From assembly GCF_056712565.1 (NCBI RefSeq), contig NZ_CM160072.1: a DNA stretch of 64,000 bases. One strand, written 5' to 3'. The notes under the pieces were generated by a model. It did not search any database and was not told where the DNA came from. It saw only the letters and a program-made list of their open reading frames with translations. Below, piece by piece: positions 31,174 through 38,498 of the stretch. A program made the translations under genes and the position numbers. Each line of letters starts with the position of its first letter. Within the stretch, counting starts at the first letter, position 1.

Positions 31174-31738
31174 TATCGCGTCCTCAACAATGAATTTTGT
31201 GATGCGGTGCCTGGTGCTTCCAGGTGACGTTAACCAGTTAACAATTAACGCCGGATACAGAGAATCCACCCATAACACTGTTTTTGGTTTTAACTGTTCC
31301 GCGTGCGCTTAGCCGCATTCACCGCATCACAAAATTCACTTTAAAAAGGGCGGCAGAGCAGTCACGGAGTAAAACTGATACCGCCAAACGTCACCAGAAA
31401 ATTGATAACAGAGGGCGTTGCAGCGGGGTTGTCACTTAAGCGTATGGTCAACCTGACAACCCGGTGTCCTCAACGGTGGAAGGAATAACCCCGCCATACT
31501 TACCGCCGCGCCATTTCGCGGATTGCCACAACCGGAAGCGCACGGTCGACGAAAATTTAACGACAGGCTATCTATGAACCAGCTACCTCGCCGTGCGCTT
31601 TCGCGTTATGGTCTGACTTTTCAGGGAAATATCCTTTCAGTAAACTGTCAGTGCCGGATGCTCACCCGTGTCCGGCGCACGCACTCCACCTCACCCGTGG
31701 AGAACTCCTTAATTACCAACCTTAGCTTCGTTGGTTAG

Positions 31739-32567: not shown

Positions 32568-33206
32568 TTAAATATTTTGTTGAATTTTAAAGCATACGCC
32601 CAATATGCAAGATAGATCATCCAGCATAATTGAAGGGTAGCGAGGATTCGTGGGGACTAAAAGAATATCCGGCCCTTCTATCTCCAGTTTACGAATGACA
32701 GGTGTTGTGGTCCCTTTGGGTAAGGCAAGGACAATATTTCCTGGTTGTACGGTTCGATCGGGATCAACAAAAACTGTTGAACCATTTGGGATGGAAACTC
32801 CCCCACCAGATGTTGACATACTGTCACTCTCTAGAACAACTGCAAAGGTATTGGCCGGGATTTCTCCGACAAGCTGCACACAAGAGGTTATTGAGGAATT
32901 TTTCATATAATCACTCCAGCTTGCTGCCTGCTGAAGTGATAGTAGCGGAACCGTTTTTATCGGCGGTAAAGATAGATCAAGCGAATCACCTGTATTTAAC
33001 TCTCCTCCATTAAGAAGCCAATTTTCGTTTACTTTCAATATTTTTGCCAGTGAACTTATGTAACGCGAGGACGGCGCTCCTCCACCGTTCATCCATTGAC
33101 TTACGGAGCCTTTTGATGCGCCAGTGGCATTGACAAGGTCTTTGCCTTTCAGGTTTAGCGCATGCATACGTTGGGTTATGCGTTCAGATATTGTTTGCTT
33201 GTTCAT
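32568..33206 (-). CDS. CI-type prophage repressor (HTH_XRE + S24 LexA-like peptidase)
   Basis: 212 aa; N-terminal HTH (LKGKDLVNATGASKGSVSQWMNG) and C-terminal S24 domain; divergent from the Cro-like gene. Confidence 0.85.
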   Translation of the reverse strand: MNKQTISERITQRMHALNLKGKDLVNATGASKGSVSQWMNGGGAPSSRYISSLAKILKVNENWLLNGGELNTGDSLDLSLPPIKTVPLLSLQQAASWSDYMKNSSITSCVQLVGEIPANTFAVVLESDSMSTSGGGVSIPNGSTVFVDPDRTVQPGNIVLALPKGTTTPVIRKLEIEGPDILLVPTNPRYPSIMLDDLSCILGVCFKIQQNI

Positions 33207-34014: not shown

Positions 34015-35091
34015 GTGAGTATGGCTAACGCCTGGCTCAGATTATGGCATGACATGCCAAATGACCCTAAGTGGCGAACAATTGCCAGGGTGTCAGGGCA
34101 GCCAATTGCAACAGTGATGGCAGTGTATATCCACCTCCTGGTGAGCGCGTCACGAAATGTCACGCGAGGTCACATTGATGTCACGACAGAAGATTTGGCA
34201 AGTGCGCTCGACGTGACAGAAGAGGTAATTGATTCAATTTTGCAGACGATGCAGGGGCGGGTACTTGATGGTGATTTAATCACTGGATGGGAAAAACGCC
34301 AGGTGCTTAAAGAGGACAACGGCAATATTTCGCAAACCGCAAAATCTCCTGCAGAGCGCAAGAGGGCGCAGCGAGAGAGGGAAAGAAAGCGGGAACAAAA
34401 TGGCGATTGTCACGGCGCGTCACGAAATGTCACGCACATGTCACGACGAGTCACGACAGATAAAGATACAGATAAAGATACAGATCAAGAAGATCAAAAC
34501 ACTATGGTCCATGGCGTAAAAAACGCCACGAACCAGGCAGGGGATGTTCAGACCGTCAATCTTGGTCAGCCAGCAGGCACGACACCGGAAGCCGATTCAG
34601 CGTATGCGCTGAAAGCCGATTCGGGCGCTGTGCAGCAGGTGATGACCGCAAGGCCGGAGCAATCACACCAACTGCAGCAGCCCGAAGCCGATTCCGCCAT
34701 TCAGCGGGAAGCCGATCGGGTAGTCCCGGAAAACACCGGGCAGTCTGTGGGACGAGTGGATTATCCGGATGTGTTCGAACAGGTCTGGCGGGAGTACCCG
34801 TTGCGTGCTGGGGCAAACCCGAAGAAATCCGCTTTCAGTGCCTGGAAGGCCAGATTACGCGAGGGGGTGCCACCAGAGGCCATGCTGGATGGCGTGAGGC
34901 GTTACGCAAGATACTTGGCGGCTACCGGGAAAACGGGAACGGAATTTGTTCAGCGAGCGACGACGTTTTTTGGACCGGACCGGAATTTTGAGAACCCCTG
35001 GTTGCTCCCGGTAAGCGGCACGAACAACCAGCGTTGTGTGAATCATATTTCTGAACCGGATAACGAAATTCCGCCGGGCTTCAGGGGGTAA
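34015..35091 (+). CDS. Replication initiator (lambda O-like / YdaU-type) with embedded origin repeats
   Basis: 358 aa; position after the cro/cII-like genes; contains two GTCACG iteron clusters and an AT-rich stretch inside the ORF. Confidence 0.6.
   Translation: MSMANAWLRLWHDMPNDPKWRTIARVSGQPIATVMAVYIHLLVSASRNVTRGHIDVTTEDLASALDVTEEVIDSILQTMQGRVLDGDLITGWEKRQVLKEDNGNISQTAKSPAERKRAQRERERKREQNGDCHGASRNVTHMSRRVTTDKDTDKDTDQEDQNTMVHGVKNATNQAGDVQTVNLGQPAGTTPEADSAYALKADSGAVQQVMTARPEQSHQLQQPEADSAIQREADRVVPENTGQSVGRVDYPDVFEQVWREYPLRAGANPKKSAFSAWKARLREGVPPEAMLDGVRRYARYLAATGKTGTEFVQRATTFFGPDRNFENPWLLPVSGTNNQRCVNHISEPDNEIPPGFRG
34149..34185 (+). repeat. Iteron cluster 1: four GTCAC(G/A) copies at ~10-bp spacing
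   Basis: Copies at 34149, 34159, 34169 and 34180. Confidence 0.6.
34409..34484 (+). repeat. Iteron cluster 2: five GTCACG copies at 10-bp spacing plus AT-rich gataaagataca x2 (candidate ori)
   Basis: GTCACG at 34409, 34419, 34429, 34440 and 34450, followed by gataaagataca gataaagataca at 34461-34484. Confidence 0.6.
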
Positions 35092-35554: not shown

Positions 35555-35685
35555 CGAGATTAAAGTGCATTAGTTCAGATGCAAATTGACATTTTGTGGC
35601 ACAGGGTAGAGCTAGCGTGGTTGTCCGCTTTGTGCCAATAGCGGACATTGCTGGCTCATGGTATGTTAGTTTAAGGAGGCAGGTT

Positions 35686-36708
35686 ATGCCCTGTATTTCG
35701 CTGTGGTATAATAGTTGCGCAATTGATACAAGGGAGCGTTACATCGTGAAAATTGTTTTCGAGGTTAATGGAAAGAAAGTTCCACTAAAATCTTTAAAAT
35801 ACATAAGCAAAAAAGATCAACTCGAAGTAATGAAAAACTGGTTCTTTGAAAACTTTGAAGATCCGGCAAATGCTTGTCCGTATGAAAGTAGAGAAGGTGG
35901 CTATGCTTACATATATGGCGGGCCGTATGATGCGAGCGAAGAACTACAATCCATCTTCGGTCAATATGTTAAATCTGAGTATATTGAGGAATTAGTAGAT
36001 GAATTACAAACACAATGTTTTGACTGGTCTGGAAACTCAAATAATATAGATGATTGGTACGATGATGATATCTACGACGCTGTAACGTCTTCCGGTAATC
36101 CGTATTTAAAATTCATTGATAATATCGATAAAATAAAAAAACTTGCAAAAGATAAAACTGAACAACAGCAAAAAAACCACTTGCTTAGTTTGCTCTACAC
36201 GAATGTTATTACAGCTTTGGAAACGCTTTATGTTGAGCTATTCATTAATTCTATAGAGAAAGATGATGTCTACATAGCCAATTGTATAGAAAAAGGTAAG
36301 ACTGAATTTAAAGTAAGCAAAGATATTGCTGCGTTGCCTTTCAAGGGTGAACCCATCGAGAAAATTAGGGGAGAGCTAATCAGGTCAATCAAGGAACACT
36401 TGATCAGTGCAAGCTGGCATAGCACTAAAAAGGTAATCGACCGCTATGAAGCTACATTCGATATAAAAGTACAAAAAGACTGTCCGATAGAAGCTATTGA
36501 ATTGGCAACCCTCAATCGAAATCACTTAGTGCATCGTGGTGGAAAGGATAAAGAAGGGAACCTCGTAGTGATTACAGACCAGGATCTTGAAACGCTGATT
36601 GAAAATGCATCGAACCTGGCAATTATGCTCTACAACAGTTTAAATGTAGCAACGAATAAAACCACCATTTTGCAACCAGATGACAAACCGTTCATTCATG
36701 AATTTTAA
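35686..36708 (+). CDS. AT-rich cargo gene 1: protein with HEPN-like R-N-x3-H motif near the C-terminus
   Basis: AAGGAGG RBS 6 nt before ATG 35686 (alternative GTG at 35746); strongly AT-rich body; motif LNRNHLVHRGG. Confidence 0.55.
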   Translation: MPCISLWYNSCAIDTRERYIVKIVFEVNGKKVPLKSLKYISKKDQLEVMKNWFFENFEDPANACPYESREGGYAYIYGGPYDASEELQSIFGQYVKSEYIEELVDELQTQCFDWSGNSNNIDDWYDDDIYDAVTSSGNPYLKFIDNIDKIKKLAKDKTEQQQKNHLLSLLYTNVITALETLYVELFINSIEKDDVYIANCIEKGKTEFKVSKDIAALPFKGEPIEKIRGELIRSIKEHLISASWHSTKKVIDRYEATFDIKVQKDCPIEAIELATLNRNHLVHRGGKDKEGNLVVITDQDLETLIENASNLAIMLYNSLNVATNKTTILQPDDKPFIHEF

Positions 36709-36723
36709 TAGCGCAGGTCATAC

Positions 36724-37725
36724 ATGGATATTCGCACACGAAAGACAAAATTTTTAGAGTCGTTAGATTCAACTGAAGTGATACGCAAAGCAGTAAGTCT
36801 CGCTATAGATTGCATTATTGATAATCATAATAGTAATGAAGATACCCCCTTAGTTATTACCAGCTATGATGATCTCTGTAGAATCCAGGTGCTAAATTAT
36901 GTACAGGAGTTTTGCGAAGCTGCATTCCCTGATATGGATGAATATTACTTTAGTCCTAACATACTTCGCATCAACGGCAAGACTAGTGAAGAAGCTTGTA
37001 TTAACTTAATTAAACTCTTAAGAAGTACAAAAGGCATGCTATTCTGGTCCGATGCCCCATCGTGGTTCGCTAGCCTCCCCGACGGATTATTCCATGTTGT
37101 TAACATTGATCAAAAAATCGTTACTCGCGGCCTTAATAAGAAAAACTCTAAGCCGACAATAATCAATAAAGATTACAGTGTAGATACACTACTATCAGAG
37201 CTATTTTTGAATGGCGCACACATGGAGCAACCCAACGTACACAACGTTTCTGAGGGAAACATGAAGTTCTATGATGAATGCCATGCTGGATTAATCAGAC
37301 CAATACCCGCTCCAATAGGCGCGTCATACGATGAAGAGATCACAATTAATTCTCCAGATTGGCAAAAGCTCGCGTGTGTAGCTTTACGCCGCTATCAGTC
37401 GAAGGAATGTCATGACGGAATGCAATGGGATACAACCGATCATGGTTGGACTGATGTAATCGCGTATCCATTCGTCGAAGAAATACAATCAATGGATAAT
37501 AGTGGTTATCGACAATGTTTAGTTGGGCTGGTCACAATAAACAATTCAAATGCAAATTCTCCGTACCTATCTACCGTTTGGATACATCCATTTTATCGCA
37601 GGAGAGGGTTATTAAGTAAGTTATGGCCAAAATTACAAGAGTTATATGGAAGTAACTTCGAAATTGAGCGACCTAATGAAAATATGAAAGCATTTCTGAA
37701 AAGTGCGAAACACGCAGATTACTAA
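36724..37725 (+). CDS. AT-rich cargo gene 2: protein with GNAT-like C-terminal motif
   Basis: 333 aa, 15 nt after gene 1; C-terminal ...LSTVWIHPFYRRRGLLSKLWPKL... resembles GNAT acetyl-CoA motif A. Confidence 0.5.
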   Translation: MDIRTRKTKFLESLDSTEVIRKAVSLAIDCIIDNHNSNEDTPLVITSYDDLCRIQVLNYVQEFCEAAFPDMDEYYFSPNILRINGKTSEEACINLIKLLRSTKGMLFWSDAPSWFASLPDGLFHVVNIDQKIVTRGLNKKNSKPTIINKDYSVDTLLSELFLNGAHMEQPNVHNVSEGNMKFYDECHAGLIRPIPAPIGASYDEEITINSPDWQKLACVALRRYQSKECHDGMQWDTTDHGWTDVIAYPFVEEIQSMDNSGYRQCLVGLVTINNSNANSPYLSTVWIHPFYRRRGLLSKLWPKLQELYGSNFEIERPNENMKAFLKSAKHADY

Positions 37726-38131: not shown

Positions 38132-38342
38132 TTTTATATTGGCGAGGTGACGGGAGTTAAGTAGAATTGCTGCGGGTGCTTGAGGCTATCTGCCTCAGGC
38201 ATGAACACCAAAGGCAGATAGAGAAAAGCCCCAGTTAATATTACGCGTCCTGCAAGACGCTTAACATTAATCTGAGGCTCAATCTATGAACGGCAAATCT
38301 AGGTTAGCCTCTTACGTGCCGAAAGGCAAGGAGAAGCAGGCT

Positions 38343-38498
38343 ATGAAGCAGCAAAAGGCGATGTTAATCGCCCTGATCGTCATCTGTTTAACCGTCATAG
38401 TGACGGCACTGGTAACGAGGAAAGACCTCTGCGAGGTACGAATCCGAACCGGCCAGACGGAGGTCGCTGTCTTCACAGTTTACGAACCTGAGGAGTAA
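38343..38498 (+). CDS. hok: Hok/Gef-family type I membrane toxin
   Basis: 51 aa MKQQKAMLIALIVICLTVIVTALVTRKDLCEVRIRTGQTEVAVFTVYEPEE. Confidence 0.85.
   Translation: MKQQKAMLIALIVICLTVIVTALVTRKDLCEVRIRTGQTEVAVFTVYEPEE

Follow-up and report, generated by a model that had tools for sequence, protein, structure and literature searches.

The initiator gene and its repeats

The window analyzed here is a stretch of 64,000 nucleotides (nt) of DNA from NCBI RefSeq assembly GCF_056712565.1 (contig NZ_CM160072.1), and the element in question is a lambdoid prophage of Escherichia coli. The genes follow one another as a cI-like gene (32568-33206, minus strand), a cro-like gene, a cII-like gene, the replication initiator gene and a Ren-like gene. 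Within the initiator gene there are two arrays of a short direct repeat, GTCACG, the second of which is directly followed by an A-rich tract. These elements, possibly together with a palindrome, probably constitute the replication origin of the prophage, located inside the gene for its own initiator. To judge from sequence comparison, this arrangement, the intragenic iteron origin, is a known one of which the window provides a new example.

The initiator is a protein of 356 amino acids (aa), named “phage replisome organizer” by NCBI. Along its whole length it corresponds to phrog_3729 (“replication initiation protein”, E 5e-258), and its C-terminal domain matches phrog_1701 (“DnaD-like helicase loader”, E 7e-63). 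A Pfam scan of the protein gives no match to the lambda O family (Phage_rep_O), and its best matches are non-significant, including the Pfam replisome-organizer N-domain (E 0.24). A winged-helix fold is predicted for the N-terminal domain, and its top matches include the DnaD N-terminal domain. The first-pass annotation of the window had described the gene as an O-like initiator; this holds as an analogy but not as homology, since a lambda O domain is absent from the protein, which appears to be a winged-helix protein of the replisome-organizer/DnaD type. The features of the locus are the following, in window coordinates and with distances in base pairs (bp):

34021..35091, plus strand: replication initiator gene, 356 aa, ATG at 34021 (open reading frame list, PHROG match, NCBI name); contains all candidate origin elements
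34021..34311, plus strand: predicted N-terminal winged-helix domain, aa 1-97; presumed repeat-binding domain
34149..34185, plus strand: array 1, four direct copies of GTCAC(G/A) in steps of 10, 10 and 11 bp; encodes aa 43-55
34212..34217, minus strand: lone inverted GTCACG, 27 bp beyond array 1 (pattern search)
34402..34749, plus strand: predicted disordered linker, aa 128-243 (predicted local distance difference test score, pLDDT, <50)
34409..34455, plus strand: array 2, five direct copies of (T)GTCACG in steps of 10, 10, 11 and 10 bp; in the linker-coding part, aa 130-145
34456..34500, plus strand: A-rich tract, (ACAGATAAAGAT) x2.9 and then GATCAAGAAGATCAAAAC; presumed DNA-unwinding element
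34505..34535: 31-bp imperfect palindrome TGGTCCATGGCGTAAAAAACGCCACGAACCA, 13 pairs, 3' of the A-rich tract
34750..34968, plus strand: helical C-terminal domain, aa 244-316, common to initiators with unrelated N-domains (phrog_1701)
35017..35088, plus strand: C-terminal tail ending in VNHISEPDNEIPPGFRG, near-identical to the flexible DnaT tail of the host; presumed to dock a DnaC-type loader

The repeat unit is a 6-bp direct core, (T)GTCACG, separated from the next by a variable spacer of 4-5 bp, resulting in a period of 10 or 11 bp. In array 1, as read from the sequence and by pattern search, GTCACG starts at 34149, 34159 and 34180 on the plus strand and the variant GTCACA at 34169, while the five copies of array 2 start at 34409, 34419, 34429, 34440 and 34450 on the same strand. 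The pattern search thus reproduces the coordinates of the two clusters, about one helical turn per copy, that had been noticed before. Tandem Repeats Finder reports a 10-bp array at 34408-34458 and, at 34456-34490, 2.9 copies of ACAGATAAAGAT, which is the AT-rich direct repeat already described behind array 2. Both array 2 (aa 130-145) and the A-rich tract (aa 146-157) lie within the part of the gene that codes for the linker.

The arrays greatly exceed what chance would give. The exact hexamer GTCACG occurs 40 times in the window, where 27 +/- 5 occurrences are expected, and nine of the 40 are packed into 307 bp. Runs of at least three copies of a 5-mer at 10/11-bp spacing are limited in the window to the two GTCAC arrays and one three-copy run of GGCTG, and a run of at least four copies is absent from all 200 first-order Markov simulations of 64 kb.

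A DNA signal or a peptide repeat

Two similar peptides are encoded by the arrays, SRNVTR at aa 44-49 and SRNVTH at aa 134-139 of the translation. Do the repeats then arise only because the protein is selected for SRNVT-like peptides? The presence of both peptides would agree with this, as would the amino acids encoded by array 1, which are fairly conserved within the GTCACG clade. However, a period of 10 or 11 bp is not a multiple of three, so that successive copies are read in different frames, a pattern that a peptide repeat cannot yield. Across the family, spacings are of 10 bp (n = 418) or 11 bp (n = 150), and the copies occupy all three reading frames, as GTC-ACG (V-T), TGT-CAC (C-H) and TCA-CGx (S-R).

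Synonymous positions were compared in 57 distinct N-terminal coding sequences of 300 nt, with 66-100% aa identity to the window gene. At the seven third-codon positions internal to the motif, 0-5% of these sequences are off-consensus, as against a mean of 35% at the remaining 89 third positions (Fisher p = 2e-5), and the contrast holds for the codons of conserved amino acids alone (Mann-Whitney p = 5e-5). The synonymous sites of the motif are therefore frozen while adjacent ones vary. Other lineages encode very dissimilar peptides at this place, for example TATQGNADAT or VTETQGNAGVTQ, yet retain a phased hexamer. Furthermore, array 1 encodes, according to the structure model, the end of helix 3 and a lower-confidence loop (aa 43-55) that tolerates insertions, and array 2 is positioned in the disordered linker. 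The arrays are thus a signal under DNA-level constraint and not a protein repeat. The peptides are a by-product, as the first-pass annotation had suggested, and selection for SRNVT-like peptides is an extremely unlikely explanation of the repeats.

Conservation and co-variation of the arrays

Both arrays occur at matching positions, nt ~129-185 and ~370-490, of 103 distinct homologous genes. For array 1, every GTCAC-type gene listed has its copies at gene nt 129, 139, 149 and 160. The inverted copy is also kept in homologues (gene nt 193-197), and Ralstonia-type genes contain inverted CGTTGC copies just past array 1. Conservation extends to Aeromonas phage pAEv1818 and Pseudomonas phage Marin, where both arrays and a GATAAAGAT tract are retained at ~70% protein identity. 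The copy number is four in array 1 (rarely three or six) and three to five in array 2, and in-frame insertions of extra repeat units in homologues fall exactly at the array 1 loop.

The core itself differs between lineages, and it does so in both arrays at once. A single core is common to the two arrays in 99 of the 103 distinct genes; it is broken by point changes in the remaining four, and none is discordant. The core is GTCAC in 88 of these genes, GCAAC in seven, GTGAC in three and GTAAC in one or two. Five types of hexamer are distinguished: GTCACG, GCAACG (Ralstonia phage Firinga and relatives), GTGACG (three metagenomic phages), GTAACG (two enterobacterial prophage lineages) and CGAACG (one further lineage, a spring-water phage). 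Specificity that switches jointly in both arrays is a defining trait of iterons and their initiator, and the repeat core is specific to the initiator lineage and co-varies with it. Back-translation of 146 protein representatives, with GTCACG compatible in 75, CGAACG in 11, GTAACG in nine and GCAACG in seven, is a compatibility test only and carries little weight.

Some initiators, that of Shigella phage 75/02 Stx among them, have an unrelated N-domain and resemble the window gene only from just past the A-rich tract onwards. The N-domain and the repeats therefore form one exchangeable module. In the Shigella phage initiator (L216:2080-2105 and 2331-2355, Eru4 type), the N-domain coding part contains GGGGCTTC twice at 11-bp spacing, and related inverted copies (GAAGCCCC and GAGCCCC) lie just 5' of a purine-rich tract. 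These repeats may represent a parallel origin layout in another initiator family.

Alternatively, the repeats could be functionless, the product of neutral replication slippage in a tolerant linker. The number of array 2 copies varies from three to five, and alleles differ in how far the linker repeats, the A-rich 12-mer included, are expanded or contracted, as slippage would predict. Initiator alleles are 302 to 374 aa long, a variation in the linker that is due to gained or lost linker repeats and ACAGATAAAGAT units. Against this explanation, the position and core of array 1 are invariant across E. coli, Aeromonas and Pseudomonas phages, and the joint change of core in both arrays is something that slippage alone cannot account for. 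Neutral slippage is thus hardly credible as the source of the arrays.

Several observations on the repeats stand apart from this comparison. An allele 97% identical to the window initiator (L211:3501-4583) has GTCATG as one of its array 2 copies, which changes T to M in the peptide, and one more ACAGATAAAGAT unit; it is followed by a DnaC-like loader gene. The linker of the window protein also contains a 36-nt direct repeat, beginning CCGGAAGCCGATTC (34585-34620 and 34681-34716), whose copies are 75% identical and encode PEADSA... The distances between the first copies of the two arrays cluster at 240, 250, 260, 270 and 281 bp; helical phasing between the arrays was set aside as independent evidence, as the gain and loss of whole 10-bp units explains it.

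The A-rich tract and its surroundings

The G+C content of the initiator gene reaches its minimum, 25%, at 34460-34499, directly after array 2, with an AT skew of +0.6 (A over T on the coding strand). Purine-rich, GATAAAGA-like tracts follow array 2 in other lineages as well. Two GATC (Dam) sites 10 bp apart are present in the tract (34482-34495, GATCAAGAAGATC), and a GTAACG-type relative (L213) likewise has two GATC sites in its A-rich tract.

The palindrome at 34505-34535 is a possible part of the origin. GC-rich inverted repeats, unrelated in sequence, occupy its place in homologues, with at least seven paired bases in 14 of 27 clusters compared with 26% of control windows (p = 0.003); the enrichment is modest and suggestive only. 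The palindrome encodes a conserved peptide, (M/L)VHG.K, inside a linker that is otherwise disordered. Two further candidates were discarded. A DnaA box next to array 1 (ATATCCACC, 34127-34135) has two mismatches, and the equivalent bases are not kept in the Aeromonas and Pseudomonas homologues. Internal promoter-like sequences number three consensus-level sites, with 1.6 expected; one is formed by the repeats on the minus strand, and they are not informative.

Protein binding to the arrays may serve purposes other than initiation. The initiator, or another phage protein, could bind them for control, either as an autoregulatory block of transcription or by pairing genome copies to limit replication, with the origin placed elsewhere. 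Array 1 and its inverted copy are close to the start of the coding region, so that a protein bound there could stop RNA polymerase, and two arrays separated by 260 bp invite looping. Moreover, the co-variation of core and initiator shows a specific protein-DNA pairing, not initiation. On the other hand, every lineage read at sequence level has behind array 2 an A-rich tract, the hallmark of an unwinding element, no other repeat array is found in the 64-kb window, and the N-domain and repeats move as a module up to the A-rich tract, as expected of an origin and its initiator. A role in control with the origin elsewhere is accordingly considered unlikely. Control and origin functions are not exclusive, and array 1 may be regulatory in any case.

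Helicase loading and the DnaT-like tail

How would an initiator of this kind obtain a helicase? The first-pass annotation recognized no loader gene downstream; the next gene is indeed Ren-like, and tblastn of the whole window with DnaC-, lambda-P-, DnaB- and primase-helicase-type queries gives no match. The loader-less arrangement is shared by 68 of 80 loci with an identical N-domain, and is also found in the genome record of phage Tritos, deposited as complete.

The C-terminal tail of the initiator offers a candidate answer. Its last 13 residues, SEPDNEIPPGFRG, correspond almost residue for residue to the flexible C-terminal tail of E. coli DnaT. A PDB sequence search with the tail retrieves 6aep (E 0.003) and also 2ru8 and 9zbt, and aa 333-356 of the initiator match positions 156-179 of the NCBIfam DnaT model. 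The three-helix-bundle domain of DnaT (Pfam PF17948) has no match in the window initiator, while a full DnaT C-terminal domain is present in an Aeromonas homologue (E 5e-17) and in E. coli O157-type relatives.

Tails and neighboring genes were compared at the window locus (35017-35088) and at loci L001, L210, L211, L213 and L215-L221. Where the tail is of the form IP(P/D/E)GF(R/T)G, or the shorter PPGFN of an Aeromonas phage, a DnaC/IstB-type loader gene comes next in seven of eight lineages, the eighth being the loader-less type of the window. Where it is of the form ...(P/A)LD(C/S/P)..., lacking PPGF, on the same N-domain, a lambda-P-type loader comes next in four of four lineages. Since the type of tail tracks the type of loader in relatives, we infer that a DnaC-type loader docks on the tail; for the window prophage this would be host DnaC.

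The tail of DnaT itself is described as flexible and of ~20 residues (PMC5778457), and truncation after residue 153 abolishes cooperative binding to single-stranded DNA (PMC4132743). How DnaT recruits DnaB/DnaC is stated to be unknown in a 2026 preprimosome structure paper (PMC13377028), and a partner of the tail is not reported in the literature found. A joint reading, tentative and on the whole doubtful, connects these points. The tail ...IPPGFRG would copy that of host DnaT as a docking peptide for DnaC-type loaders, allowing the initiator to plug into the host DnaB-DnaC complex and making a loader gene needless, and E. coli DnaT would recruit DnaB-DnaC by the same tail. In the same reading, since array 1 forms part of the sequence that encodes the DNA-binding domain, any change of origin specificity would have to rewrite a protein loop and both DNA arrays at once. 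If true, the DnaT-type tail provides a testable idea of how DnaB-DnaC is recruited by DnaT and by initiators of the window type.

Comparison with known origins and partition sites

In phage lambda, iterons and an AT-rich tract make up the origin, which is placed centrally in gene O (PMC7466680, PMC6022878). The first-pass annotation saw a mirror of lambda in the window, and the comparison holds for the arrangement but not for the protein family. As in lambda, the putative origin is found inside the initiator gene, in the part encoding the linker that connects an origin-binding domain at the N-terminus to a recruiting domain at the C-terminus, which is where array 2 and the A-rich tract are positioned, and the A+T-rich tract directly adjoins the repeats. 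The number of repeats varies among relatives in both cases (four in lambda and six in Shiga toxin (Stx) phages; three to five in array 2 of the window family), the repeat sequence and the N-domain are exchanged as one module, and the gene is placed after a cII-like gene in the early-right operon. Differently to lambda, the initiator is not an O homologue, and its repeats are 6-bp direct cores, one per turn, instead of hyphenated palindromic iterons of 18-19 bp. There is also no P gene in the window prophage, although some relatives with the same N-domain have a P-type loader.

For related Stx-phage regions, nothing is known of the replication or the replication proteins of non-lambda modules according to the papers on Eru replication regions (PMC8951638). 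The window module has no match to replication types Eru1-3 (PMC8044961), and Eru4, represented by Shigella phage 75/02, has only the C-terminal module in common with the window initiator (PMC8951638).

A closer parallel is provided by phages with replisome organizers. The lactococcal phages TP901-1 and Tuc2009 have origins inside their replisome-organizer genes. In SPP1, oriL comprises direct repeats together with an AT-rich unwinding element within gene 38 and is bound by the product of that gene, the replisome organizer G38P (PMC6316719). The window gene likewise contains direct repeats and an A-rich tract, a layout kept in the 103 distinct genes, and its product is named a replisome organizer by NCBI and PHROGs and has a predicted fold with the DnaD-type N-terminal domain among its best matches. 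Differently to the window, where both arrays are in one gene, a second origin is present in SPP1 at a distance of 13 kb, and SPP1 encodes its own loader and helicase, neither of which is encoded in the window. The candidate origin of the window fits the replisome-organizer kind best, though membership in the Pfam family is not significant.

Iteron plasmids and E. coli DnaT share further traits with the window system. In iteron plasmids, a winged-helix Rep protein binds direct repeats next to an A+T-rich region; the sequence of the repeats is specific to the Rep lineage, and inverted copies are often autoregulatory. Plasmid iterons are ~17-22 bp long and located outside the rep coding region. 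The window combines the same parts, namely a predicted winged-helix initiator, direct repeats, an A+T-rich neighbor and a lineage-specific repeat sequence, but its core is 6 bp long, repeated at one-turn spacing and placed inside a coding sequence. With DnaT, the window initiator shares a nearly identical tail, but neither the three-helix bundle nor the DnaT N-terminal domain; it would be targeted by DNA sequence, whereas DnaT is targeted by PriA/PriB.

Repeats phased at 10-11 bp can also make up partition or packaging sites. The parC site of plasmid R1 consists of two arrays of 11-bp repeats bound by ParR, and the two arrays of phased short repeats in the window resemble this layout. Could they be a centromere-like site or a packaging-recognition site? 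They are found in a replication gene of the early-right operon of a lambdoid prophage that integrates, neither a partition ATPase gene nor a terminase gene adjoins them, and their core co-varies with the N-domain of a replication initiator. A function in partition or packaging is thus very improbable.

A proposed route to initiation

An origin within the initiator gene, as first proposed for the window, is supported at the sequence level by DNA-level constraint, fixed gene positions, the co-variation of core and lineage and the A+T-rich stretch after array 2. The following course of events may be envisaged. On induction, rightward early transcription would lead to the 356-aa initiator, whose N-terminal winged-helix domain would bind the (T)GTCACG cores. 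As these recur every 10-11 bp, they would be presented on one face of the helix. An oligomeric nucleoprotein complex would form on array 2, presumed to be the core initiator-binding array, with array 1 and the inverted copy, 260 bp upstream, assisting or regulating. The adjoining A-rich tract would then melt, and the C-terminal domain and DnaT-type tail would recruit DnaB complexed with a DnaC-type loader; as the prophage has no loader gene of its own, this would be host DnaC. We infer the binding of the repeats by the initiator, the melting of the A-rich tract, initiation at this site and the partner of the tail.

Several points weigh against an origin at this place or against parts of the proposed route. 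The A-rich tract is short, ~45 bp, and no closer to oriC-type 13-mers than chance, with one two-mismatch match (34474-34486) and a window total of 20 against 23 by chance. A stable single-strand structure is not predicted over array 2 and the A-rich tract, the fold of this segment being no better than that of shuffled sequence (z = +1.0), and a single-strand hairpin was discarded as an origin part. The presence of two arrays 260 bp apart, the first in the region coding for the DNA-binding domain, departs from the lambda pattern, and binding sites inside a gene could serve regulation instead of initiation. Foldseek with the full-length model of the protein returns non-significant matches only, and the link between tail and loader consists of gene order alone, in 12 lineages. 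Lastly, literature searches for the repeat sequence and for iterons combined with “phage replisome organizer” yielded no description of an origin of the window family. With these points taken into account, the two arrays and the A-rich tract are still regarded as the probable origin.

Distribution and neighboring genes

Of 5426 complete E. coli genomes, 2209 (41%) contain the replication module, and the initiator gene is found in 496 IMG/VR contigs. Near-identical genes occur in the records of phages Tritos, Evi and others, and the N-domain family comprises more than 4000 representatives at 50% identity. The five natural specificity variants offer a system for studying how a winged helix would read a 6-bp word once per turn. 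The repeat cores may also serve for typing prophage replication modules and for predicting their incompatibility, and the origin, if confirmed, a handle on the amplification of toxin and other cargo genes by prophage replication after induction.

The immunity-replication region is bracketed by the genes for two small RNAs, the antisense RNA DicF upstream (31348-31399, minus strand) and the antitoxin RNA sok downstream (38174-38348, plus strand), as would fit a lambdoid prophage backbone of the Qin/Rac-like kind. Two open reading frames, at 35596-36708 (370 aa) and 36724-37725 (333 aa), lie side by side in the interval from the replication gene to the hok/sok locus. They match the function-unknown PHROGs phrog_17908 and phrog_16994, respectively, and no PADLOC defence model; it is possible that both are accessory cargo genes.

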